Source: a virus. Taken from it: DNA of 64,000 nt. The DNA lies in the IMG/VR virus record IMGVR_UViG_3300033155_001835, positions 2,603-66,602 of that record; one strand, given 5' to 3'. This document shows positions 2 through 25,785 of the stretch, in pieces (the stretch's first letter is position 1; every line of letters starts with the position of its first letter). Below the pieces are notes generated by a model. It searched no databases, was not told where the DNA came from, and worked only from the letters and a program-made list of their open reading frames with translations. The position numbers were made by a program, and so were the translations under genes.

Positions 2-226
2 GGTGGTGTAAGTATTAAAGGTGTCTTCTCTAAACCTTCAGTTGTTCCTGTCTTTACCAAGAAGGTCTGGGACGCAGTTGGTAATATCATCCCCATTGTA
101 GAAGTCTTCTCTATGCCTACTGATGACAAGGGTGATCTTGGAGAAATGGTGTCCTACAAGAAGGATATTTACGTGAAACTAGAAGGTGGTTGGCATATTG
201 CTCAGGGAGAGTCTGATGCAACTTGA
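2..226 (+). CDS. 5'-truncated small ORF carrying tail-tube-like and decoration-protein-like peptides
   Basis: Frame 2 is open from the window edge to TGA 224-226 (GGVSIKGVFSKPSVVPVFTKKVWDAVGNIIPIVEVFS...GESDAT*). Not in the ORF track. Its 3' end overlaps the next ATG at 216. Confidence 0.75.
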   Translation, partial: GGVSIKGVFSKPSVVPVFTKKVWDAVGNIIPIVEVFSMPTDDKGDLGEMVSYKKDIYVKLEGGWHIAQGESDAT

Positions 227-509
227 ATTTAGCTTTGTTAGAGATGAGAAACCCTATAGAACTCGTGTATATGGCCGTCGCTGCGCGGCTCCTCTTTACG
301 ATATGACTGCTGATAATGAAGGATCTCTACCAAAGGTACACTCTATGAAGAAGGACATTTGTTCTGTTTGTGGTCACGAAGGCACAGACGGTCCTTGCAA
401 ACATCTCTATCCTTCTGTGCCTTCGTTTGCTCAACTAAAGAAGTGGATGCTAGAAACAATTCCTCAATTCCTGACACCTGATGGCAAACTGCAGGATGGT
501 AATATCTAA
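216..509 (+). CDS. Small QLEF-tag protein with prohead-protease-like ICSVC..G.C.H peptide
   Basis: Start reassigned to ATG 216 (GGGAGA upstream), giving MQLEFSFV like its neighbours. TAATG-coupled to the next ORF. Confidence 0.8.
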   Translation: MQLEFSFVRDEKPYRTRVYGRRCAAPLYDMTADNEGSLPKVHSMKKDICSVCGHEGTDGPCKHLYPSVPSFAQLKKWMLETIPQFLTPDGKLQDGNI

Positions 510-751
510 TGCAGACTGAGTTTTCTTTCGTGTTAGACGAGTCTGAGTGGTCTTGTCATCTTCATTCATTTGAATGTCATCCATACGCAATGTTCAAGAT
601 TGGTGACATTGTGCAGATCAGTTGTAACAATACGTTGCTTGGTCCTCATGATGCAGGTGACTATCGTTGGGCTGGCCGCGTTGTTTCTATTCAACATAAC
701 TTTCCTGGACCCTCTACAGCAATAGTTGATACGAGATTTAGATGCAATTAG
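509..751 (+). CDS. Small QLEF-tag protein (MQTEFSFV), possible hub-like peptide
   Basis: ORF track; shared N-terminal tag; overlapping start and stop codons. Confidence 0.8.
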   Translation: MQTEFSFVLDESEWSCHLHSFECHPYAMFKIGDIVQISCNNTLLGPHDAGDYRWAGRVVSIQHNFPGPSTAIVDTRFRCN

Positions 752-942
752 AACTAGGTTTTATAAGACAAGACTTACCTTGGGCTCTTAACGGACGCAT
801 TGCAGAACTGCAACGTGCAGGCTATACGCAGGCTTTTGTTGACAGATGGCTAGATGAATATTTTGAGTACCACCAAAGAATGATTTTTTCTGCCCTTGGC
901 TTCAGTGAAAAAGATATCCCTTTGGCAAAGAGGAAAGTCTGA
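742..942 (+). CDS. Small QLEF-tag protein (MQLELGFI) with portal-like peptide
   Basis: ORF track; tag; DEYFEYHQRMIFSALGFSEKDI aligns to the portal. Confidence 0.8.
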   Translation: MQLELGFIRQDLPWALNGRIAELQRAGYTQAFVDRWLDEYFEYHQRMIFSALGFSEKDIPLAKRKV

Positions 943-943
943 G

Positions 944-1219
944 ATGCAAATGGAATTTTCTTTTGTAAAGAAGTTAGAGCTACCACAACAAGTCGACCCG
1001 CCCTATCTTCCTTCTTCTATCCTTCAAGGAACTCCTACTATATGTACCTTCTCCACTAGTCTTATCTTTGAGGATACAATTGAAATAGGCAGTCCTGTAG
1101 CTCTGGACGAACAAGGTCGTGCTTACCAGGCAACATCTCACCAAATTCAAGATGTGATTGGTGTGGCAGCAGGTAAACCATGCCCTGGTATGATCAATGT
1201 GGTGATGAATGCAGACTGA
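944..1219 (+). CDS. Small QLEF-tag protein (MQMEFSFV) with capsid-decoration/cement-like segment
   Basis: Start reassigned from 896 to ATG 944 (GAGGAAAG upstream, follows the stop at 942). Contains IGSPVALDEQG...DVIGVA. Confidence 0.78.
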   Translation: MQMEFSFVKKLELPQQVDPPYLPSSILQGTPTICTFSTSLIFEDTIEIGSPVALDEQGRAYQATSHQIQDVIGVAAGKPCPGMINVVMNAD

Positions 1220-1403
1220 ATTTAACTTTGTACAACTAGAAAAACCTTACACGCCTAAAATACGCCTGTGGAAACATATGGACAAAATCCCTGAATACGA
1301 TGTAATAGGTATGTACAATGAAATGGCAGAAGACATGAAGAATTTTCATGGGATCGATATTAAAGCATACAAGCAGGAGTACTTGGGAGAATTCATCAAA
1401 TGA
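1209..1403 (+). CDS. Small QLEF-tag protein (MQTEFNFV) with capsid-like peptides
   Basis: ORF track; tag; YDVIGM and EMAEDMKNFHGID; ATGA-coupled to the next ORF. Confidence 0.8.
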   Translation: MQTEFNFVQLEKPYTPKIRLWKHMDKIPEYDVIGMYNEMAEDMKNFHGIDIKAYKQEYLGEFIK

Positions 1404-1690
1404 CAGACAAGCCACGAGCGCCCGCTACCCTTCTTATTCATTCTCTCATGGACACCCTTTGGGATCTTCAAGACAGAATGACCCACACAGGAGACTCCAA
1501 AGAAGGAATGAATGTACTAGAGGCACACGACTATTTCAGTCGAGAAAGTGACCAGGGGAGAGAATGCTCTTATGCTCTTAAAGCAAGATCCCTTTTTGCC
1601 AAACAAGACTACACAGAAATTAAAAAGCTATTTCTGGCTGCCCTTGACGCTTATCGCGCTTGTGAAGGAGACGACTTTGGCACTCCTTAA
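1400..1690 (+). CDS. Hypothetical protein (96 aa, no tag)
   Basis: GGGAGA RBS and ATGA overlap with the previous ORF. No recognisable motif. Confidence 0.7.
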   Translation: MTDKPRAPATLLIHSLMDTLWDLQDRMTHTGDSKEGMNVLEAHDYFSRESDQGRECSYALKARSLFAKQDYTEIKKLFLAALDAYRACEGDDFGTP

Positions 1691-2036
1691 ACCACCAGGT
1701 GAAAACCTAACTAAAGAAAACCCAGCATGGGTCACAGAGTACTATGCCACTAAAAACCAAGTCGGCGATGCTATAGACTGGCCTTCATTCAAACAGATGA
1801 AAGAAGACCAGCAACAGCAAATGCAGAACTGGAAAACAAAACTAAGCTCAGTCAAGATGGATGACATATTCGACGCTTTCTCTAATATAATGAACGCACC
1901 TCTAGCTTCTCCCACCATGGTAATGCACCCTGATACCTGGCAACTCATCTTGAAACACGAAGCATATATACGTATTCTAGAACTATCTACACAACTAGAG
2001 TTTCCTTTTGTAGAGGATGAACTAAAAAGGCCGTGA
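1677..2036 (+). CDS. Small protein with major-capsid-derived segment and C-terminal QLEFPFV tag
   Basis: Start probably TTG 1677 (AAGGAG 6 nt upstream) rather than 1548. SVKMDDIFDAF...TMVMHPDTW matches the MCP. Confidence 0.8.
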   Translation: MALLKPPGENLTKENPAWVTEYYATKNQVGDAIDWPSFKQMKEDQQQQMQNWKTKLSSVKMDDIFDAFSNIMNAPLASPTMVMHPDTWQLILKHEAYIRILELSTQLEFPFVEDELKRP

Positions 2037-2224
2037 TCGGTATCACTCTTTGTGATTTTGACTCTGTCCCTGGGGGCAAGGCAGCAACCTGGAAAGGTAA
2101 AGACCCCAAGGTATGCTATACTGTTGATGATTTGTATAATTTTTTGTACGATGAGTTTGCTGGCGCAGGTCAACTAGAGTTCAAGTTTGTAATATATGAG
2201 GAGTGCCCATGGCTGATGATGTAA
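2033..2224 (+). CDS. Small protein with C-terminal QLEFKFV tag
   Basis: GTGA overlap with the previous stop; tag at 2171-2191. Confidence 0.75.
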   Translation: MIGITLCDFDSVPGGKAATWKGKDPKVCYTVDDLYNFLYDEFAGAGQLEFKFVIYEECPWLMM

Positions 2225-3093
2225 ACATCTCTGAAAATAATAATCCCAAAACTGCTCTAGTAAAGCTTTCTGGGCAGATCATCAAGACAGACGGCTCTTC
2301 CTACGATTCCAACTTCTTTAAGTGTCTAGACCTACATCCTGATGACTATTCTGACATTTCCTACACTCCCAAAGAAGCAGCTAGTATTAGGTCACATCTC
2401 TTGCATCTTTCTACCGGAGCTTCTGCTGCTATTCCTCTGATCTGCGGAGGTACTGCCCATTGTCCATTTGCAGAGAGATGCCCATTTGTTCGGACGGACA
2501 ATATTCGCCGAGCAGCAGATCCGAAAGCAAAGCTTTGTACTCCGATTGGACGCCAGTGTCAGGTAGAAGTTAATCTACTGAGTCAGTGGACCAGAATGTT
2601 CATACACGAATACGAGATCGATGAAAAGAGCTTTTCTCAATTCACCATGGTCAGATTGCTTGCAGAGTGTGAGTTGATGTTGTGGAGGCTGAATAACAAC
2701 CTGGCAAAGCCTGAGAACGCAGAGTTGGTTGTAGATCAGGTAATAGGTGTGGACAAGGAAGGGAATGTCCTGACTCGCCAAGAGGTCTCAGCCTTCGTAG
2801 AGGCCAAAGAGAAGTATGAGAACAAGAAACTCAAATTGATCAAATTAATGGTTGGAGATCCACAGGAACAGTACAAGCGTGCCGCCGCCCTGCGTCAACG
2901 TGGGAAAGAGGATCCGTCTACCAATGCAGCGCAACTCCGCGCATCTCTTGATAGATTACAGAGAGAGGCTAAGGCCTTGGATTTAATGGTGAAAGAGGTA
3001 GAGGGAAACGTAATTGACGCGGAGGCTCTCCCAATAGAGGCAGAAGAAGTAAAGGATGATACCCTGTCCCCAGAGGACCTGCTCAAGGAGTAG
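2209..3093 (+). CDS. Cys-rich helical protein, candidate terminase small subunit
   Basis: GAGGAG RBS before ATG 2209. C..CPF..CPF..C..C cluster, helical core and charged C-terminal coiled coil, upstream of TerL. Function inferred from position only. Confidence 0.45.
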   Translation: MADDVNISENNNPKTALVKLSGQIIKTDGSSYDSNFFKCLDLHPDDYSDISYTPKEAASIRSHLLHLSTGASAAIPLICGGTAHCPFAERCPFVRTDNIRRAADPKAKLCTPIGRQCQVEVNLLSQWTRMFIHEYEIDEKSFSQFTMVRLLAECELMLWRLNNNLAKPENAELVVDQVIGVDKEGNVLTRQEVSAFVEAKEKYENKKLKLIKLMVGDPQEQYKRAAALRQRGKEDPSTNAAQLRASLDRLQREAKALDLMVKEVEGNVIDAEALPIEAEEVKDDTLSPEDLLKE

Positions 3094-3103
3094 TGGTATC
3101 AGT

Positions 3104-6100
3104 TTGGCTAACGCATTCATCCAACAGCTATATGCAGAAGGTATAGTTTCAGGAGAGTTATCAGCTCCTGAGTCTATTCGTGCGCGTGCAGCACATGTTG
3201 CGAAGCAGTCTGGATTCACCTTCGTTACAGAAGGGAAACCTCTTTTTCGAAAAGGGGAGAGATGGAAAGTAGGGTCTGTTAAATATAAGACTCATACTCG
3301 CTTCTATGCTCAGACACAAGCCATCAGAGAGAACTGGGAAGCCAGAGCTTCTTCTGTTTTTGGGAGACCTCTATCTACAGAACGTCTAGAGAACCTTACA
3401 GCAGTGATACAAGCCCACGAGGGCGCAGAAGCTTTCTATCTTGGCAAGACAGGACACCAGCGCTTTGGTAGTCATGCATCAGAGTCAGTCATCCAGAGTG
3501 AGCTAGAAGTAGCACGCAGGATGGGTCCACAGACAGCAGCAGATACTGTTAGATACAGAAGGTGGGAAAGTGAACAGCTAGTTGGTATGGCAACACATCA
3601 GACTCCATACTGGAACACATATAGACAAAGAATGGGATCTATTCTGGACGAGTTCGAAAGCCAAGGTGCTGTAGTAGGTTCAGGTTGGCAAAAGAGAGGA
3701 GGTCGAAGGTACCGTTCTGTTGCTGAACAGTTTAAGCTTGACCCAAATAAAAATGTAACACTTTTCCATGGTACTAACGAACTGTCTGCACAGAGAATTG
3801 CAAAGGGTGTGTTTGAACAAGGTGCAGATAGAAACTATGTTGAGTATCATCGTTTGGCTAAAGCTCAAGCAATTGAATCTTGGGCTGCTCCCCGTGGCCC
3901 TGTTGCCGGTGGGCTTATAGGTGACAGGCCACTATCTGCACTAGAGCAAAAACAGTTTCATACTCCAGCATTACTTGTCACCGAAATACCTTCTAAGTAT
4001 GTAGGAATACAGTCTGGCACCGGACAGTTTGATGAAAATATTGTATGGTCAGAGGGCTTGAAACAAGCAAAGCATAGAGTGGTTACTGGAGAAGAAGCCT
4101 TGCAGAGAATCTCTGAACAGAACTTAACTGTTCAGGAATACTTTGAGGAAGAGAGTTTCAAAAAGCAGGCGGCTGCGAAGTCTTCGGCTATGGCCCGTAC
4201 TGAAACTGCAATGGCCAAGGCAGGCAAAGCTACTGCATTAAACCCTGACGAGGCCTGGGCAGCCTTTCTTGACGAGAAGACTCCGGGTACTCCACGAGGC
4301 CTACCTCCTCCTGTAGAAGCTACTAGAGGCTTCAAACGTATATCTCGTTGGAAGATAGGACTAGGTGTAGGAGCAGCGGCCCTAGCGGGGTACGGAATTA
4401 CTAAACTACTCCCAGATGAGAACAGAGGTTACTACTCCTTTGATGGTTTCCAGCATGCTGGTACTGCACCAGGCATCCGTAGAGATATGACTCCATTTGG
4501 TTCCAAATATGACAGAGTGCGTAAGCTTGCAGGTATGATGGAAGAGACCTTTGAGATGATGACATCACGTAAGGGTTTCAAGCAGGCCTTACAGAGTGCA
4601 AAGCTAGTCAAGACATTTGAAGAGGGTTCCTTTGCTACAGCAGGTCTATATAGAGCTTCCTACAAGGGTAAGTCTTTTAGGTTTGTCAAGAAGGAGATCT
4701 CTCAGGAAGCAAAAGAAGAGCTGATGCGGAATGCAGCTAATCCAGAGAAGTATGCACGTGGTCTTGATCTGGAGCATGAAGCTAAGTTCCTTCGTGAGTT
4801 AGGAGAAACACCAGCGGCTCCTTCTCTTTATGGTCACTTCGATGATGCATTATATATGGAGTACATGCCAGGAGAGAGAATGGGTGACTGGGCAGTCAAT
4901 AACCCAGCTGCTGTTATGACTAGACAAGCCAAAGAAGATATAGAAGAGACAATCTACCAGGCAGCAAAGAAGGGTTTTACAAACCTAGATATCCATGGCG
5001 GTAATATTCTATTTGATCCAAAGACAGGCAGAGGTTCTTGGATTGACTGGGGCCTAGCTACACGAGAAGCGTCAGGTGTTGTAGGTCAGTCTTCTGAAAT
5101 GAGTGGTAAGTTTCTTGGTACCACTGGTGTCGCTGTACCGCTCCTTGAGCAGAAGGCTCATATGATGCAGGGCTCTATAAGAAAGGTATCCAGCTCTTTT
5201 GCTTCTGTACCAGCTGGTCCCCGCGCAAAGCTTTTAGCAGAACAGAACGCTTCAGAAGGTATGAAGCATGGTGGAATGGCTCAAAGAAAGCGTTCCTCTA
5301 TTACAGAGTTTGGTTCTAAATGGAAAGGTATGTTTGGTAGACTTTTTGGTGGCAAGTCAAAGGCAGCTTGGAAAGGAGGAGCCCGTCAGCTTCCAGAAAG
5401 ATTGCAAGTGGTAGCTAGAGATTGGCAGGGTGTTACTGCACGTCCAGAACGATTACAACAGTTTCTACATGCAGATATTGAGGCAAGTGGTCTCAGTAAT
5501 GCACTCCAAAAAAATCTTAAGAAAGAAGCAAGTCAGTTTCTAAAGGGAGCTAAAGCACAAGAACACTATGTCATTGCCAACCCAAGAGCGATCAAAGAAG
5601 GCGCGGCAGAAGAAGGTGTTTCTTACCTAGCTCGATATAAGGGTGTTATGCGCCATGAACGTTTTCACCAATCTATTGCTAAACATAAAGTTAGAGACTC
5701 TTTGAGACTTCTAAATGATTCTTCTTTTATCCCTGAGCATTTCCATAAATTTGCAGGCAAGAATGCTGCTGAAGAGTATTTTGCATATGCTATGGAACAA
5801 CCTTTAGTTCGTCGTCAGTCAGGATACAAACACGCTATGGCTCTCTTCAAGGGTAATGATGCTGCCTATACTCGTATTGAAGCGTTACACGGAAAAAATG
5901 TAGCATCGCAGTTGCGTAAGGTTTTAACAGATTTTGGTTCTGGCTATAGAGGATTGCAAGCTTCTTTTAGCAAGACAGTTGCTCAAGCTGCTAGACCAAG
6001 AGCAGGCATCAAATTGACCAATTCAGCTAAGGACCTTAAACTAGCACAAGAAAACATATGGGAATGGGCAAGAGGCGGCGGTCAACGTCACACTCGTCCA

Positions 6101-6148
6101 ACAGGCAGTCACGTACAACAACTATCTAACTTTGGAGGTATTCTATAA
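3104..6148 (+). CDS. Polyvalent protein: zincin-like, ADP-ribosyltransferase-like, Ser/Thr kinase, zincin
   Basis: Frame is open from 3056; likely start is TTG 3104 (TTGGCTAAC, as at 20003 and 37774). Motifs: AHEGAE; LFHGT..I..GVF; EGSFA..VKK..E..LYMEY..DIHGGNIL..IDWGLA; RHERFH..EEYFA. Confidence 0.75.
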   Translation: MANAFIQQLYAEGIVSGELSAPESIRARAAHVAKQSGFTFVTEGKPLFRKGERWKVGSVKYKTHTRFYAQTQAIRENWEARASSVFGRPLSTERLENLTAVIQAHEGAEAFYLGKTGHQRFGSHASESVIQSELEVARRMGPQTAADTVRYRRWESEQLVGMATHQTPYWNTYRQRMGSILDEFESQGAVVGSGWQKRGGRRYRSVAEQFKLDPNKNVTLFHGTNELSAQRIAKGVFEQGADRNYVEYHRLAKAQAIESWAAPRGPVAGGLIGDRPLSALEQKQFHTPALLVTEIPSKYVGIQSGTGQFDENIVWSEGLKQAKHRVVTGEEALQRISEQNLTVQEYFEEESFKKQAAAKSSAMARTETAMAKAGKATALNPDEAWAAFLDEKTPGTPRGLPPPVEATRGFKRISRWKIGLGVGAAALAGYGITKLLPDENRGYYSFDGFQHAGTAPGIRRDMTPFGSKYDRVRKLAGMMEETFEMMTSRKGFKQALQSAKLVKTFEEGSFATAGLYRASYKGKSFRFVKKEISQEAKEELMRNAANPEKYARGLDLEHEAKFLRELGETPAAPSLYGHFDDALYMEYMPGERMGDWAVNNPAAVMTRQAKEDIEETIYQAAKKGFTNLDIHGGNILFDPKTGRGSWIDWGLATREASGVVGQSSEMSGKFLGTTGVAVPLLEQKAHMMQGSIRKVSSSFASVPAGPRAKLLAEQNASEGMKHGGMAQRKRSSITEFGSKWKGMFGRLFGGKSKAAWKGGARQLPERLQVVARDWQGVTARPERLQQFLHADIEASGLSNALQKNLKKEASQFLKGAKAQEHYVIANPRAIKEGAAEEGVSYLARYKGVMRHERFHQSIAKHKVRDSLRLLNDSSFIPEHFHKFAGKNAAEEYFAYAMEQPLVRRQSGYKHAMALFKGNDAAYTRIEALHGKNVASQLRKVLTDFGSGYRGLQASFSKTVAQAARPRAGIKLTNSAKDLKLAQENIWEWARGGGQRHTRPTGSHVQQLSNFGGIL

Positions 6149-7740: not shown

Positions 7741-9741
7741 GTGCTACTTGACCTCAATCAATGTGATCCAACCTGTAAGAGCTGTGTCTCTCTTTATTTT
7801 AAGAAGCACAAAGTAAAGCAAGGTACTGAAAAGCCTTTCAGAATTACTTGTGAAGGTATTCCTCTTAATTATATCCCTGACAGTATATTAGCAGCAATTG
7901 GTGGCGACCCCGAACTGGCTATCTCTACTTATGATCCTGTCGTATGGGCTCGTAAGTTTCTAGACTGGCATTGTGAAGATCCAGATGGTGAAGTTTGGAA
8001 AAGAAAAACGCTTGAGCATAGTCTACCTCCAGAAGCCGCATCCTATGATAAAGAGAGAGCCGAAGCTGGTAAGTCTATTTTCCATAGACCTTATCAGGCT
8101 GACATGCTCCGTTGTGCCGCAAAGTATAAAGCGTTCCGTATTGGCCGTCAGGCTGGCAAGACAGAGACTCTTTGTATTGCTATTTTGTGGGCGCTATATA
8201 CACACGAAAAGTTTAAGGTTGTTTTAATTTGTCCTTATCAAGCACAGGTAGAAATGATCTTTGGTCGTCTAGAAGACCTAATTTCCTCTAGCTCGCTACT
8301 GAGTGATGCTATCGCAAGAAACGCAAAAGCTCCTAACTTTCAGATCAAGCTCTTTAATGGTTCTCGTGTAAATGGCTTCACGGCTGGTACACGTTCTGGC
8401 CAAGATGCTGGTGCTGCACGTGGTCAGCCTGCAAACATGCTAGTGTTCGATGAGGCCGACTATCTTTCTCCTGGTGACATTCAGGCAACTCTAGCTACGA
8501 TTGTTAACTTCGATAAAGCTACTGTATGGATGTCCTCAACACCAACGGGTCGTAGAGAGAAGTTTTACGAATCTTGCAACAATCGAATTTATCGTGAGTT
8601 CTACTACTCCTCTATGGTCAACCCCAACTGGACTCCTGAGAAGGATGAGTTCTTCAAGTCTGAATATACAGACGAACAGTACAGACACGAGATTCTTGCT
8701 GAGTTTGGCGAGCAAGAGGAAGGTGTATATCAGGTTAAGTATGTAGAGGCTGCACAGGCAGAGTATGAATATGCAGAGATGACGCCGCAGCCTACATGGA
8801 CCTATATGATTGGTGTGGACTGGAACGACGTGAAGATTGGTACCACTATTGCAATCGTTGGTCACAACCCTCATGACGGTCTTTTTTATATCGTAGATAA
8901 GCATACTATTAGTCGTGCAGAACGTACTCAGTTGGCAGCATGTAATAAGATTGCAGAGCTGAACCGTCTGTGGCGTCCAGCAGCTATTTATGTAGACCAA
9001 GGTTATGGAGCTACACAGATTGAAGTACTCCAAGGCTTTGGCGCTACTGAGCTGCGCACCAAGGGTCCGAACCATCCTGATGCTCGTCTACGTAATATTG
9101 TTAAGGGTTATGACTTCGGTAGCAGTATCGAAATTCGTGACCTCTTCACCAAGCAGGCTATCAAGAAGCCAGCCAAGCCATTCTTGGTAGAGACTTCTGT
9201 TCGTCGCTTTGAGCAACAGCAAATGCGCTATCCTGCTTCTGATGAGAAGTATACTGCACAGCTTCTTGGTTATGTTATCCAACGTGTTTCTATCACAGGT
9301 CGCCCAGTCTTTGAACAGCAGAACGAGAAGGCTGGAGACCACTTGCTTGATGCTGTCAACTTAGCTCTTGTTGCATTCGCTCTTGAGAAGAGTGAGTTTG
9401 GTAAACCAACTTACATGCAACACATTGCTTTTGGTGGTCAATTTGGAGATAATAAGAAACAGCGACCAATTACCGATGCAAGAGATAATCGTCCGAAACA
9501 AGGAAGGGCAGCGGTGATGACTGATGGTAATCAACCTATTATCCCTTCTGCTCAGGGTGACTTGCCTGCTGCAAACCATTCTGTAGAATCAGGCATAGGT
9601 CTTTGGAATTGGCCTGGATTCGGCCATGATGCTCCAAAGCCAAGAGTACGCACATTAGGTGAAGCGTTTAATCAAGCACAAGAAAGAGTCACAGGGAGAC
9701 CTTCTCGTAGACGCCCCCGCCCACGTCGTGCTAAATTCTAG
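7741..9741 (+). CDS. terL: Terminase large subunit
   Basis: RPYQ Q-motif, Walker A GRQAGKT, Walker B LVFDEAD, coupling motif STPTG, RNase H-like nuclease GVDWN..DQGYG..DHLLDA. Confidence 0.95.
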   Translation: MLLDLNQCDPTCKSCVSLYFKKHKVKQGTEKPFRITCEGIPLNYIPDSILAAIGGDPELAISTYDPVVWARKFLDWHCEDPDGEVWKRKTLEHSLPPEAASYDKERAEAGKSIFHRPYQADMLRCAAKYKAFRIGRQAGKTETLCIAILWALYTHEKFKVVLICPYQAQVEMIFGRLEDLISSSSLLSDAIARNAKAPNFQIKLFNGSRVNGFTAGTRSGQDAGAARGQPANMLVFDEADYLSPGDIQATLATIVNFDKATVWMSSTPTGRREKFYESCNNRIYREFYYSSMVNPNWTPEKDEFFKSEYTDEQYRHEILAEFGEQEEGVYQVKYVEAAQAEYEYAEMTPQPTWTYMIGVDWNDVKIGTTIAIVGHNPHDGLFYIVDKHTISRAERTQLAACNKIAELNRLWRPAAIYVDQGYGATQIEVLQGFGATELRTKGPNHPDARLRNIVKGYDFGSSIEIRDLFTKQAIKKPAKPFLVETSVRRFEQQQMRYPASDEKYTAQLLGYVIQRVSITGRPVFEQQNEKAGDHLLDAVNLALVAFALEKSEFGKPTYMQHIAFGGQFGDNKKQRPITDARDNRPKQGRAAVMTDGNQPIIPSAQGDLPAANHSVESGIGLWNWPGFGHDAPKPRVRTLGEAFNQAQERVTGRPSRRRPRPRRAKF

Positions 9742-10856: not shown

Positions 10857-12371
10857 ATGGCAAATGCGACTACACCCTCAAGTGCTAAAAACGTAAAGCC
10901 CCGCTTTGACTTCAGCGGAGTAGATCCTTCTACTGTGAATGTAGACACTCTTGATCTAGGCACTAACCAATCGGATTGTGCTATTATCGCTCAGACGTTC
11001 GAGCGCGGTGCTCATTCTACTCCTTCAGAAGCTGCAGTTTTTGCTACCATTAGTCGCACGTTACAAAACAACAAAGCTTTCGCTATCTCTTCTAGTGCCT
11101 CTTTCAAAACATACTTAGGTGCTCCACAAGAAGATGCAGCTACTGTTGCTCAACAATCAAACCAGTATGCTGCCGCAGGCGCTAGTATCTCTGGTGGCGG
11201 CGGTTCTAGTGCACAGACTCAACAGTTTATGCAGTCCTTAAATATAGGCACTCAACAACAGACAACACATGGAGATTCGTTTGGAGAGAAATTACTAGAT
11301 AAAGCACGCGAATGTATTCCTTGTGGCGTACGTTTGTCTGCATTCTTAGAACTCCAGCCTAATGTTGATTTATTGGGTAGTTTTGAAACTTATTTAAAAA
11401 CAGCTCTTGGGAACTTGCAAAGTGTTGCTGATCTACTAAACAACTTTGACACCTATGGAGACTTGTGCGCCCTGCTCAACCTTTTCTCCTTTATGTGTAT
11501 CCCTGACCTACAACGTATTATTGCTTTGTTTATGGCCCTCTTTATCCTTGAGGTACCAGAGCTGGATGGTCTTATTGGTTTGTTAACCTCTCTAGTCATG
11601 CCTATCTTCGCTCCTATCCTTGTAGGTATCTCTACTCTCTTGGATCAGTTTGTAGTACTTATTACTAATCCACTTGCCTGTGTAGTAGATGCAATCAACC
11701 TACAGATAAAAAAGCTTGGCTTCGAATCTACTCGCGAGGGTAGAAGGTTAAAGAAGGATCTTAAGGACGCTTCGACGAAAAGCAAAGAAGTTACAAAAGA
11801 GATTAACAACGGTATCAAAGAAATGAAAAAGCAGTTGCAGGAGGGTATACAGAAAGTTAAAGCAAGGATGAGTTTCTACACCCAGCAGATTAATGCAATG
11901 TTGGGTGAAATGGGAGGCGGCGATGCTGCCTACCTCCAAGCCAAACTTAAGGTATTGCAATTGGTTCGTCTGATTGCTTTTGTTACTGCTATTATTAACG
12001 CTCTAACCAGAGGCCATGCTGCTTGTTCTAATACAGGCAAGAATGCAGAGGCTCCTGAGATTGAGAACTTTTATCAAAACTTCCTTAATCCACAAGCCCC
12101 TTTCAATATCTATCTCGATAATAATGGTAATTTAAAGATCGATGAAGATTTTGGCGACCTCGGTGATGAACTAGAGGACTTGAATGAAACAGGAAATGTG
12201 TTTCAATTTGAGGGGGAGTCTTTGCTGGACACTACAGTGCTGCAAGCTGTTGAGGAGGTAACTGTCTCGTTGACATCACCTACACAGGTCGCAGTTCCTT
12301 GCAAACTGGAGACAACTGTTTCTGATGTAGGAAAGGTCAATCAGTGGATGGAACAACTTAACCAATCATGA
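10857..12371 (+). CDS. Hypothetical protein with hydrophobic helices and coiled coil
   Basis: 504-aa ORF; CIPC/CIPD motifs, long hydrophobic stretch, K/E coiled coil; immediately upstream of the portal. Confidence 0.75.
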   Translation: MANATTPSSAKNVKPRFDFSGVDPSTVNVDTLDLGTNQSDCAIIAQTFERGAHSTPSEAAVFATISRTLQNNKAFAISSSASFKTYLGAPQEDAATVAQQSNQYAAAGASISGGGGSSAQTQQFMQSLNIGTQQQTTHGDSFGEKLLDKARECIPCGVRLSAFLELQPNVDLLGSFETYLKTALGNLQSVADLLNNFDTYGDLCALLNLFSFMCIPDLQRIIALFMALFILEVPELDGLIGLLTSLVMPIFAPILVGISTLLDQFVVLITNPLACVVDAINLQIKKLGFESTREGRRLKKDLKDASTKSKEVTKEINNGIKEMKKQLQEGIQKVKARMSFYTQQINAMLGEMGGGDAAYLQAKLKVLQLVRLIAFVTAIINALTRGHAACSNTGKNAEAPEIENFYQNFLNPQAPFNIYLDNNGNLKIDEDFGDLGDELEDLNETGNVFQFEGESLLDTTVLQAVEEVTVSLTSPTQVAVPCKLETTVSDVGKVNQWMEQLNQS

Positions 12372-14749
12372 AAATCTTTGGCTTCGATATCAACTGGAAC
12401 AAAGCACCAGCAGATCAGGTAATCGTTCGCACGGTTGCACCTGCAACAATTCCTGTCTCTAAAATCCCTACTGTTAAAATTGGTTCTCTTTCTTATGCAC
12501 AACAGTTTGCGCAAGGACGCGGCCATTTTCAGTCTGCAGAGTATGACTTATCCGAAATTGGTAAGATAGAAGATACTGATGGCTTTGTCCGTCAGGCTTT
12601 CAAAAAGAAAGAAGGCTTGATGTTCAAAGAGGGCGTTGGATGTAAGGGAGCTAACAAACGTACAGTCCGTTATTACAAGACTCGTATGGCTCAAATAGCT
12701 CAGGCATCTAGTGTTCCCACAAGTATTCTATTGAAGCGAGTGGCGCGTAGTCTTATTCGTACCTCAAACGCCTTTCTTGTTAAGGTTCGTGACCCAAACA
12801 AGTCTGGTGGTAGTATGCGTACTACTGCTGATGGTAAGCGTTTAAAGCCAATTGCTGCCTACTTCCCAGCTGCACCAGAAACAATGCGTGTAGATTTGGA
12901 CGCAAATACAGGCAAAATACGTAAATGGCGACAAGTTCTTCCAGATGGACGTTGGAAAGACTATCAACCAGAGAATGTTGTTCATTTCGCAATCGACAAG
13001 CGAGAGGGCTTTTTCTTTGGAGTTCCTTCTATTATTCCTGTTATTGATGATATTCGTGCCCTTCGCCAGATCGAAGAAAATATTGAACTACTTTTATATC
13101 AACATCTCTTTCCTCTTTTCCATTACAAGGTAGGTACTGAAACAGCTCCTGCTGGATATACCGAGGAAGGAGTAAGGGAAGTTGACGCAATAGAGACTCA
13201 GATTAGCATCATGCCTTCTGAGGGCGCTATCGTTACTCCAGAGCGTCATGAGATTAAAGCTATTGGCTCTGAGGGTAGAGCTGTTAGAGCTGAAGGTTAT
13301 CTAACCCACTTCAAGAAACGTGTCTTTGCAGGTCTAGGCGTCTCTTCTGTAGACATGGGCGATGGTGATACAACCAACAGAGCTACTGCTCAAACCCTTT
13401 CTCGTGCAATCATTGATGCTGTTAAGGCTATCCAAGATGATCTTGAAGCACAATGGAACCAGCATGTCATTTCCGAACTACTTCTTGAAGGCGACTTTGG
13501 TGCTCGTGTTCTTGAAGAAGAGGATATGGTCTTCTTACAGTTCACTGAAATTGATATTCAGAACAAGATGGAGATTGAGAAGCATGCTATGGAGCTATGG
13601 AAGGCCAGCTTGTTGACATTTGATGAAGCCAGAGGCGCAATGTCTCATGAGCCTATTCCTCTTCCAGAACATGGTGAAGAGCAGGATCCAAAGAAGTACC
13701 CTGAATGGTTCTCTATTTACTTCAAGCTTATCGAAGAGCCTCTTAACCTTATTCGTGCCGTCGATGAACCTTTCAGTATGGCTGCAAGAGCTATGGCTGA
13801 AGCACGTGGTGCGGCTATGACCGAGAAGGGCAGACAAGAGCAGATTGCAGGTAAGAAAGAAGAGGTTAAAGCTCAAGCAGAAGAGGATAGGAAGACCAAG
13901 ATCGCTGTTGTTAAAGCAAAGCCAGCCTCGCCTCCTTCTACTAAGAAGAAAGATCACTACCTCTCTACTGCTTTCAAGGACCTTGAGTCTGATACTGTTG
14001 ATCGTATCCAAACTAGCATCACCTCCAGAGGAGTTGTTGATGCTGAATACCTTCTATCACTAGCTCGTATATGGGCTGCGGATACTGTAGAGAAACTACA
14101 TTCTCTAGCTGTGGGTCAGTTAATCCTTGGTTTTAATGATCAAACTAACATGCAAGCATCGAACGCTGAAGTCTTACTTTCTGTAGGTCGTCAGATCATT
14201 TTGGACCGTATTGACTACCGTATCAACAAACTGGTTGTTAATACTGTGAACCTTGTCTCCCGCCGAGTTGACGAGAACCTTGGTGATGTTAAACTGGCGG
14301 AAGCATTGCCGGATGTAGCCCGCGAATTGCATATTGCATTTGATGCAGTTAGATATCGTACGGACTTCATCTGGGATGTAGAGATTCGCAAGGCCTACGC
14401 TTTCGGTCGTGTCCTTGGTATGAGACATCTAGGCGAGTATGGTTTTGAATATCATGCCCATTCAGATAGTTGTGAACGTTGTGCTGCAATAGATGGCCGA
14501 GTAATGCCTGCCATGGCTGCGGGGATCGACGACGTACCTCCTCTTCATCCAAACAGTCGGATGAAGTTTAAGATCGTTAGAGAAGACCCAAGCATTGTAG
14601 ATGTAACTGACGCAACAAAAGAAGGTATTGAACAGATCATGGTACCGTGTCCTGAGTGTGGCAAGTCAGCAACCTGGCAATCGAAAGCAGCAAATTACTA
14701 TTGTGCGGCATGTTCACATTCATTTGTTGAAAAGGATATCAAGGAGTAA
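12368..14749 (+). CDS. Portal protein fused to MuF-like domain and Zn ribbon
   Basis: Position between TerL and protease; portal-type segments (NAFLVKVR, VVHF..FFGVP, FAGLGVS, LTFDEAR). C-terminal CERC..DG..PPLHPNSR and CPEC..CAAC. Confidence 0.88.
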   Translation: MKIFGFDINWNKAPADQVIVRTVAPATIPVSKIPTVKIGSLSYAQQFAQGRGHFQSAEYDLSEIGKIEDTDGFVRQAFKKKEGLMFKEGVGCKGANKRTVRYYKTRMAQIAQASSVPTSILLKRVARSLIRTSNAFLVKVRDPNKSGGSMRTTADGKRLKPIAAYFPAAPETMRVDLDANTGKIRKWRQVLPDGRWKDYQPENVVHFAIDKREGFFFGVPSIIPVIDDIRALRQIEENIELLLYQHLFPLFHYKVGTETAPAGYTEEGVREVDAIETQISIMPSEGAIVTPERHEIKAIGSEGRAVRAEGYLTHFKKRVFAGLGVSSVDMGDGDTTNRATAQTLSRAIIDAVKAIQDDLEAQWNQHVISELLLEGDFGARVLEEEDMVFLQFTEIDIQNKMEIEKHAMELWKASLLTFDEARGAMSHEPIPLPEHGEEQDPKKYPEWFSIYFKLIEEPLNLIRAVDEPFSMAARAMAEARGAAMTEKGRQEQIAGKKEEVKAQAEEDRKTKIAVVKAKPASPPSTKKKDHYLSTAFKDLESDTVDRIQTSITSRGVVDAEYLLSLARIWAADTVEKLHSLAVGQLILGFNDQTNMQASNAEVLLSVGRQIILDRIDYRINKLVVNTVNLVSRRVDENLGDVKLAEALPDVARELHIAFDAVRYRTDFIWDVEIRKAYAFGRVLGMRHLGEYGFEYHAHSDSCERCAAIDGRVMPAMAAGIDDVPPLHPNSRMKFKIVREDPSIVDVTDATKEGIEQIMVPCPECGKSATWQSKAANYYCAACSHSFVEKDIKE

Positions 14750-14756
14750 TCGCTGT

Positions 14757-16514
14757 ATGGATAATTTTGTTAGATTTAGAGATGCCTTAAATGTGAAGCC
14801 TCTTGAGATTAGTCAAGATGTGAAAGATTTTTATGCAGGTCTAGGCACTAGCCAAGCTGCTGTTCAGCCTCTGCGTGTACGTATTGCAGCAACTCATGCT
14901 GGCAAGATTACTCGTAACAACGGTTTTTATCTACCACACAAAATGGCCGCAGGCGTTTCTTCTTTTACGGACCAATATGCAAAACCAATTCAGATTCATC
15001 ACCAGGATGATTTAGACCCAATTGGACGTGCAGTTGGAGCAGCATATGTAGACATGAGTAGAGGGTTCCGTGATTCGGTACAAGACTCATACTCTAACTC
15101 TTCATTTAAACAATTGCAGGACTTTGTAGATGGGCGTCTTTCTTACAAGGATGCATGCGCCTTCGCCACTAAGTTCTTCATCAATGATATGGTTGTAAAC
15201 TCAGACCCTGATTATGAAGGTCTTGGCTATATCGAACTAGTTGCTGACATTACAGATCCACTAGCTATCCAAAAGATTATAGATGGACGATACCTCACTG
15301 GTTCTACAGGCGCTACTACTAACAAGGCAATTTGCTCTGTTTGTAAACAAAATTGGGCTGCCGAAGGAAAATGTGAGCACCGACCTGGCAAGGTGTACGA
15401 TTCCGCTAAGTGCGTACTAATTGCTGGAGATTTGACGTATGACGAGTACTCTTTTGTTAACAAACCAGCCGATAGACACTCTCGTGTTATCGAGGTCAAT
15501 GTTAACGGAATTCAAGATTTTGTTACAATGGATGAGCAGGCAGAGTGTAGCATCCCAGAAATCACTCTGGTTGTTGATCGACATCAACACAAACAATCCG
15601 AGGAGGATCAAAACATGTTATTTAAGGATGCCATGGAGCTTGTCCGTAAGAGTGAGAAGTTTGACGAAGTGAAGGACCTAGAAGATAAGGTCAAGAAGTT
15701 TGTTGACGAACACAAAGACCTTGATGAAGCTAAGCTTTTCGAGCTGCTTACACCACAGGATGATAAGCAAGAAGAAAAGAAAGAGGTTAAGGACGACGTG
15801 AAGCAGGAAGACAAGAAGGAAGAAGTTAAGGATGACACTCCTGCGGTCCTCACTGCTGACCTTGTACAGAAGCTTATTGCTGATGCACTTGTTGCTAAGG
15901 AAAAGGCTGATGAAGAGTCAAAGAAGGCTGCTGAAGAGCAGAAGACTGTTGTCGAAGACGCGGTTAAGAAGGCTACTGTTGAGCTGACTGTCGAAAGAGA
16001 TAAGCTCCAGAAGAATCTTGACGTGGCTCGTAAGGAGATCCGCTATCTCCATTCAGACATTGAGAATTTGACTAATAGTATGGCTGACAGTGTAGAAGAA
16101 GTACGCAACGCACGAGTTAAGCATATTGTCGATCTCAAGGTTTTGGCTGATGAGAAGGCTGACGTAGAAGCTCTGACTGTTGAGTTGAAGGATAAAACTA
16201 ACGATGACCTACAGGGAATGCTAGTAGATCTAGGTAGTAAAGTTGACACTCAGAAAATCGCGGATACACTTAACTCTGGATTATCAAATAACCCATCTGG
16301 CACCGTTGATGACCCAACGCTGAAGCAAGATGCTTCTATCGGAACTGAGACTAAAGAGACTGGAGAAATTGTAGTTACTGATGAACTTGCTGCGCAAGTT
16401 AGATTCCAGTGGCTCCAGATTAATAAGGCTCAGGGTAAGAAAGCAGCGGACGCATTCATCGATGATTGTAAGACACAAAAGATTCTACCTGCTGAGTGGC
16501 CAGAAAAGAAATAA
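14757..16514 (+). CDS. Prohead protease-scaffold fusion
   Basis: AAGGAG RBS before ATG 14757. HK97-like protease pattern (THAG..N, H..PIGR, YLTGSTG, ICSVC..CEH, EYSFVNKPAD) followed by an acidic/Lys coiled coil. Confidence 0.85.
   Translation: MDNFVRFRDALNVKPLEISQDVKDFYAGLGTSQAAVQPLRVRIAATHAGKITRNNGFYLPHKMAAGVSSFTDQYAKPIQIHHQDDLDPIGRAVGAAYVDMSRGFRDSVQDSYSNSSFKQLQDFVDGRLSYKDACAFATKFFINDMVVNSDPDYEGLGYIELVADITDPLAIQKIIDGRYLTGSTGATTNKAICSVCKQNWAAEGKCEHRPGKVYDSAKCVLIAGDLTYDEYSFVNKPADRHSRVIEVNVNGIQDFVTMDEQAECSIPEITLVVDRHQHKQSEEDQNMLFKDAMELVRKSEKFDEVKDLEDKVKKFVDEHKDLDEAKLFELLTPQDDKQEEKKEVKDDVKQEDKKEEVKDDTPAVLTADLVQKLIADALVAKEKADEESKKAAEEQKTVVEDAVKKATVELTVERDKLQKNLDVARKEIRYLHSDIENLTNSMADSVEEVRNARVKHIVDLKVLADEKADVEALTVELKDKTNDDLQGMLVDLGSKVDTQKIADTLNSGLSNNPSGTVDDPTLKQDASIGTETKETGEIVVTDELAAQVRFQWLQINKAQGKKAADAFIDDCKTQKILPAEWPEKK
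15615..16514 (+). CDS. Nested in-frame scaffold protein (internal start)
   Basis: AGGAGG at 15601-15606 precedes in-frame ATG 15615, exactly at the protease/coiled-coil boundary. Confidence 0.6.
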   Translation: MLFKDAMELVRKSEKFDEVKDLEDKVKKFVDEHKDLDEAKLFELLTPQDDKQEEKKEVKDDVKQEDKKEEVKDDTPAVLTADLVQKLIADALVAKEKADEESKKAAEEQKTVVEDAVKKATVELTVERDKLQKNLDVARKEIRYLHSDIENLTNSMADSVEEVRNARVKHIVDLKVLADEKADVEALTVELKDKTNDDLQGMLVDLGSKVDTQKIADTLNSGLSNNPSGTVDDPTLKQDASIGTETKETGEIVVTDELAAQVRFQWLQINKAQGKKAADAFIDDCKTQKILPAEWPEKK

Positions 16515-16541: not shown

Positions 16542-17942
16542 ATGGCTTTCGACGAACTAAATAGGTATTCCCCAACCCATAAGGTTTGGGATCACGTAGG
16601 AAATATCATCCCGGATATCGAGCACTCCGAGGGTGAAAGACCAGCTCATGAATTCCACCCCGCAGCATGGCTGCCAGTACAGTTCTATGATAAGCATTAT
16701 GAGAACTGGATGGTTGTTATGCCAGGTAAGTGCCTTGCCCTAGACCCTGATGGCAATCTAATGTCAGGTGAATATGGTTTGACCGGCGCATCTGTAGTTT
16801 ATTCTGCTAGTGATGTTGGTGCAGGTACTATCGATGTTGCAACTGGTTTGCCAGTTACGACTGCTAAGACTGTTGTTCTTTCAAACCTTTCAGGTACTCT
16901 TGCTGGTACCGCAGCTACCGCAGGTACTGGTGGCGTAACTTCTGGTTTTATGGGTCGCGCAGGAGTAGATTTCGTTGACGGTACACAGAAGTACTTTGTT
17001 GGCGTAGCTCCATATGCATACCTACAGTGGGCTGGTGGAGACGGTTTCAACCCATCTCAGTATCAGCAACACAACTACAACATGCAGCACCAGGTTGCAG
17101 TTCTTTGCGACTATGTCATCAAGCTTCCTTTGATTCCAGCTCAGGCTGCATCAGAGGGTGTCGAAGTGGCTGTTGCAGTGCTTAACCTAGTCTTTGGTAC
17201 AGCTGATACGCATACCAGAGTTCAGGCTCAAGCTAATGCAGAGGGTCGTTACAACCCAACTACTGGTACTGTTCCAGTTTCTCTAACTGCTCCAGTTATT
17301 GCTCTTGCACTAGATAATGAGAACGTTGCTAAGAACACTGCACGTACTACCATTACTTTGCAAAGCACTAGTGCTTCTGATGATTTGTCTAGCATTTTGG
17401 TTACAGAGAAGGGTTCTGTTTCTGCGGTAACGCAGGCTGGCGACTTCTTCGTTGACTACCTTGTTGGTGTTATCTTCATCTACAGTGCAGATGGCGCAAC
17501 CATTCCACCTGTCATCACTGGCGCTGGTGGTACAGTTAGTATCACTTATTATCACACCAATGCTGCTCCTGCTGTTGTGAGCACCTTTGCTTCTGTTCTT
17601 GCTGAGGGTATTGTTCCTGGCGACTTCCTAAAAGTCGGCGCTGACTCTAACCTCGTTGTAGCAGCACCAGCCACCGATAACATCTGTGATATCGTTGGTC
17701 AGGTTCTAGCATTGGACAACAACTTCCCTAAGGACAGTCTTGAGCGTGTTAGGACTGCTTATAGTCCTGCAATCGGTACGAACCCTGCTGGTTCCATGGC
17801 TAATGCAGTTGCAGGTGGCCCAGCTACTAACCTCGGACAGATGGACCAGATGCCTGGTTCCGCAACGGGTGGATACCCAGACTTGCTTCACTATGCCGGT
17901 GGCGCTGATACGCTAGTCATCGTCAACTTGATTAGTCGATAA
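16542..17942 (+). CDS. Capsid decoration / minor head protein
   Basis: Strong AAGGAGG RBS; lies between scaffold and MCP; Ala/Gly/Thr/Val-rich; beta-tulip-like PGKCLALD and PGDFLKV..IVGQV segments. Confidence 0.7.
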   Translation: MAFDELNRYSPTHKVWDHVGNIIPDIEHSEGERPAHEFHPAAWLPVQFYDKHYENWMVVMPGKCLALDPDGNLMSGEYGLTGASVVYSASDVGAGTIDVATGLPVTTAKTVVLSNLSGTLAGTAATAGTGGVTSGFMGRAGVDFVDGTQKYFVGVAPYAYLQWAGGDGFNPSQYQQHNYNMQHQVAVLCDYVIKLPLIPAQAASEGVEVAVAVLNLVFGTADTHTRVQAQANAEGRYNPTTGTVPVSLTAPVIALALDNENVAKNTARTTITLQSTSASDDLSSILVTEKGSVSAVTQAGDFFVDYLVGVIFIYSADGATIPPVITGAGGTVSITYYHTNAAPAVVSTFASVLAEGIVPGDFLKVGADSNLVVAAPATDNICDIVGQVLALDNNFPKDSLERVRTAYSPAIGTNPAGSMANAVAGGPATNLGQMDQMPGSATGGYPDLLHYAGGADTLVIVNLISR

Positions 17943-17969: not shown

Positions 17970-19232
17970 ATGGAATTCAATCTCAAAGACGCTTCCCATG
18001 ACGAGTTTAGGTGGCTATGGGACAACAACGGAAGCTATGGTCCTGACAAGGACAACGTTGTTAAGCTTAAGGATGCTCTAAGCGTACCTAATGCTCCAAT
18101 GCTGTTCCCTAAGGTGATTCAGAATATCGTTAAGGAAGCTGCTGAGCCTCTATTGGTTGCTACTTCTTTGCTACAAAGAATCAACTATAGCTATGGACAG
18201 ACTATTACCTTCCCCGCAGTCGGTGCACTAGTTGCAGCAGACATCGCTGAAGGTCAAGAGTACCCAGAGCGTAGCCTCCAGATGGGAGGAGCAACTGTCA
18301 CGGCAACTATCGGTAAGTCCGGTCTTGCAGTGAAGGTAACGGATGAAATGATTCGTTACAGCCAGTTCGACGTAATTGGCATGCATCTCCGTGCTGCTGG
18401 TAGGGCTCTTGCAAGGCATAAGGAAGTTAAGTGCTTTAACTACATCCGTGCGATGGGTGTTACTGCATTCGATAACCTTGAGCCAAGCAACTCTGTGTTC
18501 GGTGTTACAACTGGACGCGACATGAATGGTGCTCCAAACGGTTCTGTTACTATGGATGATGTCTTCGACGCATTTGCTCAGGTCATTACTCAGGGTTTCA
18601 TGCCTAATACTCTCTTGATGCACCCTCTCACATGGACTATGTGGGTTAAGGACGCACAGCTCAGGGCATTTGTCCAGGCAAACGGTGGCGGAGTCTTCTT
18701 CGCTAACTGGACTGGCAACCCAATGGGTCGCGCTCCATGGGACAACAGTAATCAAGGTGGTCTAGGTACTGCTTCTGGTCAAATGCTTCTGCCAGGACAG
18801 AACTTGAGCGGTGGAGCTACACCTCATGGTCAGTCTGCTAGCCCACTATTGAACTACCCACAAACTCTAAATAGCGGTCCAGTGCTGCCGAGCTACATGA
18901 ACGTTCCGTTCCGTATTATCGTCAGCCCATATGTGCCTTACGATCCACGTCGTAGGCTCACGGACATCTATATGTTTGACGGTTCCGAGCTTGGCGTACT
19001 TATCGTAGATGAGGATGTCACCACGGAAGAGTGGGATGACCCAAAGGTAGATATCAGGAAGATCAAGCTGCGTGAGCGTTACGCAATTGGTATCCTGAAC
19101 GAGGGTCAGGGCATTGCTGTTATGCGCAACGTACATGTTGTACCTAACGACATCGTTCTACCTGCTCAGGCACAGGTTACGGTATCTGGTTCTATTCAGC
19201 CAATTCCACCTTCAACACCACTAAGCCTGTAA
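17970..19232 (+). CDS. Major capsid protein (HK97 fold)
   Basis: IAEGQEYPE, KSGLAVKVTDEMI, LLMHPLTW, IKLRERY; strong RBS; followed by a terminator. Confidence 0.92.
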   Translation: MEFNLKDASHDEFRWLWDNNGSYGPDKDNVVKLKDALSVPNAPMLFPKVIQNIVKEAAEPLLVATSLLQRINYSYGQTITFPAVGALVAADIAEGQEYPERSLQMGGATVTATIGKSGLAVKVTDEMIRYSQFDVIGMHLRAAGRALARHKEVKCFNYIRAMGVTAFDNLEPSNSVFGVTTGRDMNGAPNGSVTMDDVFDAFAQVITQGFMPNTLLMHPLTWTMWVKDAQLRAFVQANGGGVFFANWTGNPMGRAPWDNSNQGGLGTASGQMLLPGQNLSGGATPHGQSASPLLNYPQTLNSGPVLPSYMNVPFRIIVSPYVPYDPRRRLTDIYMFDGSELGVLIVDEDVTTEEWDDPKVDIRKIKLRERYAIGILNEGQGIAVMRNVHVVPNDIVLPAQAQVTVSGSIQPIPPSTPLSL

Positions 19233-25736: not shown

Positions 25737-25785
25737 TCACTAGTTGCGCTACACTAGTTATGACATCAGCACAAGTATTGGGCAC

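Follow-up and report, generated by a model that had tools for sequence, protein, structure and literature searches.

The DNA considered here is a window of 64,000 nucleotides (nt) from a virus (IMG/VR record IMGVR_UViG_3300033155_001835), covering bases 2603 to 66602 of a contig of 66,602 nt. Its left end encodes a cluster of small proteins, eight of which, counting one that begins just outside the window, have in common a 14-residue peptide, hereafter the tag, located at one end of each protein. Feature coordinates are window positions unless marked as contig positions. Upstream of the window the coding strand switches at about contig base 1960, followed by two untagged small open reading frames (ORFs) and then by six ORFs with an N-terminal tag. 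After these come a conserved ORF of 96 amino acids (aa), two ORFs with a C-terminal tag and a gene for a conserved cysteine-rich protein of 294 aa (Table 1). The tagged genes open a rightward structural operon that continues with the large terminase, the portal protein, a protease/scaffold homologue, a protein at the place of a putative decoration protein and, after it, the major capsid protein.

All seven tag peptides listed in a first-pass annotation of this DNA are present where it placed them. Its count fell one short, as a further copy, MQREFDFIWKELPW, whose first base (contig 2532) lies 70 nt to the left of the window, is present in an ORF that extends into the window (2-226). The five N-terminal tags within the window begin at the ATG start codons of tightly tiled plus-strand ORFs, and all eight copies occupy the extreme terminus of their protein, six directly after the methionine and two 0 to 5 residues before the stop. 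The core resembling QLEFxF that had been described is found in the copies, and their alignment reveals a longer motif than was proposed, QxEFxF[VI]xx[ED]xP[WY]; in ORF 5 there is an insertion before the P-Y pair, with one more residue between [VI] and [ED]. The regular expression Q.E[FL].F[VI] has eight matches in the six-frame translation of the contig, all on the plus strand and within 2.3 kb, with no copy in the rest of the 66.6 kb. This compares with about 0.03 to 0.13 expected by chance, as calculated from residue frequencies in long ORFs totalling 20,088 aa (0.028) or from 200 mononucleotide shuffles of the contig (mean 0.125, maximum 2). The tag family is real and strongly non-random.

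The pattern of codon conservation identifies the level at which the tag is maintained. Across the eight copies, pairwise identity of the five conserved codons is 0.86 at the first position, 1.00 at the second and 0.54 at the third, confirming the synonymous variation among copies noted in the first-pass annotation. The third-position value is that expected by chance, because the two-fold codons of this phage are used at roughly 50:50, and the two x codons are 0.25-0.32 identical, also at chance level. A nucleic-acid signal at the gene junctions, functioning in coupling, processing or as a recombination site and translated only by accident, would account for the location of each copy at a gene junction or no more than about 40 nt from one, and for the 63-81% identity of the copies at the DNA level. 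However, similarity at third codon positions does not exceed the codon-usage expectation, the x codons match only as often as chance predicts, and an Rfam scan of the first 5 kb gave no match at E ≤ 0.1, making a signal of this kind extremely improbable. A tRNA scan of the same 5 kb was also negative. With position 2 invariant, position 3 at the codon-usage level and the x codons randomised, the constraint is on residues; selection acts on the tag as a peptide and not on nucleotides. Together with the terminal position of all eight copies, this residue-level selection supports the earlier proposal of a short linear motif usable at either terminus.

By several signs the tagged ORFs seem to be real genes. 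Neighbours overlap by 1-14 nt or are separated by a single nucleotide, with junctions that include TAATG, GTGA and stops inside the next tag, and the ORFs are preceded by Shine-Dalgarno-like sites. Their in-frame codon-usage scores (0.14-0.37) are comparable to those of the two interleaved conserved genes (0.10-0.14), against 0.36 for long ORFs. The alternative, that the region is non-coding or an assembly artefact and the ORFs are spurious, draws on the absence of Pfam and PHROGs families for all eight and on the fact that each of the three tagged ORFs searched matched only itself among 5.8 billion proteins. Against it stand the perfect tiling, the ribosome-binding-like sites and positive codon scores, the interleaving of the conserved 96-aa and 294-aa genes, one confident structure model (ORF 4) and the recording of the ORF 8 protein on three contigs, the last indicating that the same or a near-identical phage was assembled more than once. 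Spurious ORFs are accordingly a most improbable explanation. A scan for promoters and terminators found signals no more often than chance. A -1 frameshift joining ORF 7 to ORF 8 at CTAAAAAGG was considered and rejected, as this sequence is no canonical slippery heptamer and nothing supported the idea. Separately, a hairpin with 16-nt arms of 94% complementarity lies at 376-426 within the coding region of ORF 2; the RNA fold of 370-432 is predicted at -25 kcal/mol (z = -4.4), with none of 200 shuffles as stable.

Table 1. Positions of the tagged genes and of the associated genes discussed in the text (window coordinates).
Feature	Position	Strand	Details
Tagged ORF 1 (98 aa), 3' part	2-226	+	ATG and tag MQREFDFIWKELPW at contig 2532-2573 (window -70 to -29)
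Tagged ORF 2 (97 aa)	216-509	+	N-terminal tag MQLEFSFVRDEKPY at 216-257; GGGAGAG upstream of ATG; start overlaps ORF 1 stop
Tagged ORF 3 (80 aa)	509-751	+	N-terminal tag MQTEFSFVLDESEW at 509-550; TAATG stop-start overlap; matches only itself
Tagged ORF 4 (66 aa)	742-942	+	N-terminal tag MQLELGFIRQDLPW at 742-783; helical hairpin model
Tagged ORF 5 (91 aa)	944-1219	+	N-terminal tag MQMEFSFVKKLELPQQVDPPY at 944-1006, with insertion before P-Y
Tagged ORF 6 (64 aa)	1209-1403	+	N-terminal tag MQTEFNFVQLEKPY at 1209-1250
96-aa ORF within the cluster, untagged	1400-1690	+	Homologues in L001, L003, L043, L044 and L045
Tagged ORF 7 (119 aa)	1677-2036	+	TTG start at 1677, preceded by AAGGAG at a distance of 6 nt; C-terminal tag QLEFPFVEDELKRP at 1992-2033 (Q codon at 1992)
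Tagged ORF 8 (63 aa)	2033-2224	+	GTG start overlaps preceding TGA; C-terminal tag QLEFKFVIYEECPW at 2171-2212 (Q codon at 2171)
Conserved 294-aa Cys-rich protein, directly downstream of the cluster	2209-3093	+	Anchor for finding relatives (loci L043-L047)
466-aa protein at the position held in 0305phi8-36 by the putative head decoration protein	16542-17942	+	Conserved N-terminal motif copied in tagged ORF 1
Major capsid protein	17970-19232	+	Pfam Phage_capsid_4, E 3.8e-19; aa 192-232 are the counterpart of the ORF 7 piece
Tube-like paralogue directly after the tail sheath gene	25056-25736	+	aa 7-25 resemble tagged ORF 1 aa 16-34

The contig is a fragment of a jumbo myovirus related to Bacillus phage 0305phi8-36, with an estimated completeness of about 35% (CheckV). 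The large terminase is encoded at 7741-9741, its best tblastn matches (29-33% identity) being those in Moorella phage MTATph1 and Bacillus phage 0305phi8-36, and is followed by the portal gene (12368-14749), a homologue of the 0305phi8-36 ORF123 protease/scaffold (14628-16514) and, beyond the capsid gene, the tail sheath gene (23155-25038). This gene order corresponds to the left end of the 0305phi8-36 genome, where minus-strand terminal-repeat genes are followed by small plus-strand ORFs and then by the genes for virion proteins, terminase, portal, protease/scaffold, putative decoration protein and capsid protein. The stretch that precedes the window, contig bases 1-1962 (L042), likewise contains small minus-strand ORFs ahead of the strand switch, and this resemblance to the terminal-repeat region suggests that a genome end may be close to the beginning of the contig. 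The tail sheath gene is immediately followed by three consecutive paralogues of 226, 312 and 255 aa (25056-27578), which all match PHROG 9206, annotated as a major head protein; by their position these are more likely tail tube proteins than head proteins.

Relatives available for comparison comprise three IMG/VR fragments, with 47-57% terminase identity, and five metagenome contigs found by means of the 294-aa protein. None of these encodes the N-tagged genes, and the 96-aa and 294-aa genes are kept wherever the stretch is present. The closest relative, L043, is 57% identical in the 294-aa protein and encodes a positional orthologue of ORF 8 that ends in QLYFSFIYDEMIKNDKNNSS, with a GTG start overlapping the preceding TGA, as in the window, and the C-terminal end DQLYFSFIYDEMIKNDKNNSS. 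The tag is recognisable there as QLYFSFIYDE, with Y replacing E, and is therefore retained in the orthologue. The eight-fold expansion of tagged genes is lineage-specific.

Searches in other genomes recovered no comparable cluster. In IMG/VR, 35 loci had one match each to a degenerate DNA pattern representing the N-terminal tag; the peptide expression re-found 33 of these, none with a second copy. At least 120 loci matched in GTDB genome contigs, and among the matches listed none had a second copy or the extended tag. A looser pattern had no match in the whole records of the related fragments G001-G003, and the tag pattern matched 0305phi8-36 once, the same count as a control pattern. Searched against 1.84 billion representative proteins at E ≤ 0.001, a profile of the tag returned only five of the window's own proteins, at a threshold that a match to the tag alone could hardly reach; against the PDB it gave one chance match, in a zinc-finger linker (E 0.73).

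Two tag-like stretches were noted elsewhere on the contig. The 1030-aa protein encoded at 3056-6148, which has a weak match to an ABC1 atypical kinase (E 1.7e-4, below the Pfam cut-off) and whose first approximately 450 residues have no counterpart in relatives, contains an internal stretch, QSGFTFVTEGKPLF, at aa 51-64 (3206-3247); this is identical to the tag region of ORF 6 at 9 of 21 positions (E 1.7), which is not significant. A prepilin-like leader at the QSGFTFVTE stretch of this protein was considered and set aside, as no hydrophobic helix follows. The major capsid protein begins with MEFNLKD (17970-17990), kept as MEF[NK]L[KE]D in three of four lineages (including L001 and L002), which is, over a very short stretch, faintly like the EFxF core of the tag.

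Beyond the tag, the eight proteins had been described as otherwise unrelated. This is right only in part: two of the bodies hold pieces resembling virion proteins, and members share weak similarities with one another. Pfam and PHROGs gave no credible match for any of the eight at E ≤ 1. In ORF 1, aa 16-34 are identical at 13 of 19 positions to aa 7-25 of the first tube-like paralogue (32.7 bits, E 4e-5), and aa 43-58 match the N-terminus of the 466-aa decoration-slot protein at 12 of 16 positions (29.3 bits), a motif that is conserved in L001-L003. In ORF 7, aa 58-99 correspond to aa 192-232 of the major capsid protein (18 of 42 identical, E 6e-8, 39.7 bits over a 36-residue core). The scores of all three pieces lie above those of 150 residue shuffles, for which the best were 26.9-27.3 bits. 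The nearest protein Atlas clusters to ORF 7 are capsid-protein fragments, with a score of 0.88 that serves as a lead only, and a weak similarity links ORF 6 aa 18-36 to aa 121-139 of the major capsid protein (E 0.02 for one pairwise comparison). Third codon positions are identical at only 7 of 19, 7 of 16 and 11 of 36 sites in the three virion-like pieces, suggesting that the copies are old or derive from diverged relatives. Within the family, ORF 2 and ORF 6 match at 14 of 32 N-terminal positions, ORF 1 aa 59-80 resemble ORF 2 aa 27-48, and ORF 8 aa 3-21 resemble the C-terminus of the untagged upstream ORF; these similarities are individually weak, with E values from 0.001 to 0.33. Judged by these comparisons, the family of tagged proteins is mosaic.

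A speculative reading of this mosaicism is that the cluster encodes addressed mimics, in which short pieces of the phage's own virion proteins are joined to one docking tag. The pieces would be a helix-strand of the capsid A-domain, the N-terminal arm of the decoration protein and the N-terminus of the tube, and the hub would be a clamp on replicating DNA, a protease or the procapsid. Possible purposes are to soak up or misdirect host immune sensors of structural proteins, or to time assembly against replication. To our knowledge a system of tagged self-fragments has not been described so far, no literature search having been aimed at this point, and we regard the idea as very unlikely to be correct.

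The mosaic bodies also raise the question of whether the tag has a shared partner at all. It could instead be the conserved first or last structural element of a paralogue family that was generated by local duplication and recombination, kept for folding or for the proteins' own function, as the weak similarities between members beyond the tag and the lineage-specific nature of the cluster would allow. In contrast to this expectation, the tag is located at opposite ends of different proteins, beside both helical and beta-rich bodies, and its x positions are randomised while five positions are fixed. The AlphaFold2 model of ORF 4 is a helical hairpin with a mean predicted local distance difference test (pLDDT) score of 78, in which tag residues 1-8 form the only long segment below 50; the tag is thus predicted to be a free tail in this confident model and is not packed against the body. 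The model of ORF 3 is uninformative (pLDDT 44), and a fold search of the ORF 4 model against the PDB returned nothing at E ≤ 0.001. Retention of the tag purely as a structural element is therefore considered quite unlikely.

The tag is probably a terminal docking peptide for one shared partner. In the mechanism favoured here, the eight small accessory proteins, locally expanded, would dock on this partner by means of the core QxEFxF[VI] and the extension xx[ED]xP[WY]. The partner may be a ring-shaped sliding clamp, either the beta clamp of the host or a DnaN-like clamp encoded by the phage on the unseen two thirds of its genome. The glutamine and the two aromatic residues would enter the clamp's hydrophobic cleft in the manner of hexameric QLxLxL-type motifs, and the diverse bodies would be attached through the clamp to the replicating DNA on which it is loaded, or would act as competitors of other clamp clients. 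As a partner identified from motif likeness, the sliding clamp is a tentative assignment, to which we give somewhat less than an even chance of being right; it is nevertheless a plausible choice as the best single candidate.

The likeness to beta-clamp ligands proposed in the first-pass annotation is real and goes further than was claimed there, with agreement in the hexamer spacing and with ligands of phages Mu and T4; the V/I, E, P and W/Y positions lie beyond clamp motifs. Clamp-binding motifs are described as the pentamer QL[SD]LF (PMC9690074) and the hexamer QLxLxL (PMC4564189). Position 1 of the tag is Q in all eight copies and in the L043 orthologue; position 2 is L in four and M in one, with T, T and R in the other three; position 3 is always acidic (E, 8/8). 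Position 4 is F in seven copies and L in one and position 6 is F in all eight, a spacing found only in the hexamer, and position 5 is S (three copies), G, N, D, P or K. Consistent with the exposed, flexible terminus expected of a clamp motif, all eight copies are terminal and residues 1-8 have pLDDT < 50 in one of two models. The variable position 2 and acidic position 3 looked atypical; in the 2026 account of the phage Mu protein MuC, a QHDLF directly after the methionine and a QPDLF at the C-terminus are both needed for beta-clamp binding and late transcription, and the Mor/C family consensus is given as Qx[D/E][L/M]F (PMC12867686). The two MuC motifs thus depart from L or M at position 2, like three of the eight tags, and have an acidic position 3. 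In the T4 record, gp43 ends in SLDFLFG, gp55 in SLDFLYEAND and gp33 in TLDFLL, and these tails, both hydrophobic and acidic, are reported to bind the clamp and to be exchangeable among the unrelated proteins that bear them (PMC2988020). Phage 0305phi8-36 itself encodes a 365-aa DnaN-type clamp.

A number of observations weigh against the clamp. No clamp gene (PF00712) was detected on this contig or on three related fragments (0/4), and among five complete cultivated relatives a recognisable DnaN-type gene is present only in 0305phi8-36. The conserved V/I at position 7, E at 10-11, P and W/Y are without counterpart in clamp motifs, suggesting a larger footprint, three of the eight copies have a residue other than L or M at position 2, and the spacing is that of the hexamer and not of the MuC pentamer. 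The tagged genes are located in the head and packaging operon and not in a replication module, the lack of any Pfam or PHROGs match means that none of the eight carries a recognisable DNA-related domain, and the virion-protein pieces in two bodies are left unexplained by clamp docking. In addition, the clamp expression consists of few residues, and the match to it is a post hoc observation. A gp45-type clamp (PF02916) was found in none of the five cultivated relatives, in a search for which the control genomes gave no match either. Co-folding of two copies of E. coli DnaN (Swiss-Prot) with residues 1-32 of ORF 2 gave scores of 0.00 and 0.01 against a mark of 0.34; run without alignments, on a small interface and with a stand-in clamp, it speaks neither for nor against the interaction.

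Residue-level selection and a strictly terminal position would fit equally well with docking on a different partner, such as a protease or unfoldase for which the tag would be a terminal degron, an adaptor, the neighbouring 96-aa or 294-aa protein, or the tags of other members in a hetero-oligomer. The 14-residue footprint exceeds that of a clamp motif, and the single tagged gene of L043 is translationally coupled to the 294-aa gene, as in the window. However, in L001, L003, L044 and L045 the 96-aa and 294-aa proteins are retained although tagged genes are absent, and a partner of this kind is judged unlikely, if a serious possibility.

The main rival to the clamp is targeting to the capsid or procapsid. 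In this case the tag would anchor the small proteins to the assembling head, either to the protease/scaffold core in the style of the T4 internal proteins or to the capsid lattice by strand addition in the style of a decoration arm; the proteins would be packaged or displayed, and processing might take place at the conserved acidic residue. Capsid-targeting tails are known at C-termini (HK97 protease, scaffold proteins), as are arms that anchor decoration proteins by their N-termini, and a tag at either end is therefore compatible with capsid targeting. A precedent for a short shared N-terminal peptide is provided by the internal proteins of T4, described as diverse and alike only in a capsid targeting sequence of 10-19 N-terminal residues that is removed by the prohead protease (PMC3012670, PMC9026906, PMC5694885). 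The genomic position of the tagged genes agrees with such a role, as they open the operon of terminase, portal, ORF123-type protease/scaffold, decoration-slot protein and capsid protein, and the 0305phi8-36 genes just upstream of terminase encode virion proteins. Pieces resembling the capsid protein and the conserved decoration-slot N-terminus occur in two of the bodies, and, counted from the methionine, position 8 of the tag is a hydrophobic V/I and position 11 is acidic, where the processing determinants reported for T4 are at 8 and 10. On the other hand, two of the eight tags are C-terminal, the [VI]-x-x-[ED] spacing differs from the L/I-x-E logo of the T4 prohead protease, and the protease is of the HK97/P2 gpO type, according to the 0305phi8-36 annotation, and not of the T4 gp21 type. 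The tagged proteins have isoelectric points of 4.2-7.7, and are not basic as the T4 internal proteins are, and none of the recognised virion proteins of the contig carries the tag. Targeting to the capsid or procapsid is accordingly held to be unlikely, at about the level given to the non-clamp partners above.

Should the partner be a sliding clamp, clamp-tethering would extend to a whole battery of small accessory proteins; should it be the capsid, the tag would be a new capsid-addressing signal in 0305phi8-36-like phages. In either case, identification of the partner would give a portable 14-residue tag for it. Known terminal tags have provided a mechanism together with a practical handle, namely the packaging of foreign proteins into capsids and the inhibition of clamps. 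The mosaic bodies, with their pieces of capsid, tube and decoration proteins, also offer a view of how new small phage genes assemble.

Shared terminal tags that plug unrelated phage proteins into one machine are known from T4, in its clamp tails and its capsid targeting sequence, and from Mu, in the MuC motifs. The tag resembles beta-clamp ligands (QL[SD]LF, QLxLF, QLxLxL) in Q1, hydrophobic residues at positions 4 and 6, a small or polar residue at 5 and placement at a protein end, and differs in a position 2 that is non-hydrophobic in three of eight copies, a position 3 that is always E and four further conserved positions. With Mu MuC/Mor, as characterised in the cited work, the likeness lies in small phage proteins bearing a Q-x-acidic-hydrophobic-F arrangement directly after the methionine as well as C-terminally, with a variable position 2 and an acidic position 3. 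However, MuC uses the pentamers QHDLF and QPDLF whereas the tag has one extra residue between the hydrophobic positions (QxEFxF), and MuC is a DNA-binding late activator whereas the genes here are eight in a row, of no known family and without a Pfam Mor match at E ≤ 1. The T4 capsid targeting sequence is similar in that small, diverse, fast-evolving proteins carry a short peptide from the methionine with an acidic residue near position 10-11, an arrangement found in six of the eight copies; here, in contrast, two tags are C-terminal, the spacing of the cleavage determinants is different, the proteins are non-basic, and the protease belongs to another family. The T4 clamp tails share the principle of one hydrophobic and acidic terminal peptide on unrelated proteins, with an L-acid-F-x-aromatic core in which LDFLF, LDFLY and LDFLL are comparable to the LEFSF, LEFPF and LEFKF of this phage; unlike the tag, which is N-terminal in six of eight cases, they occur only at C-termini, have no Q and bind a trimer of the gp45 type. 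The tag is an addressing peptide of this known sort, a shared terminal tag on unrelated phage proteins, in a new form: a statistically unambiguous family in an uncultured jumbo-phage lineage, with eight carriers and a position at either protein end.

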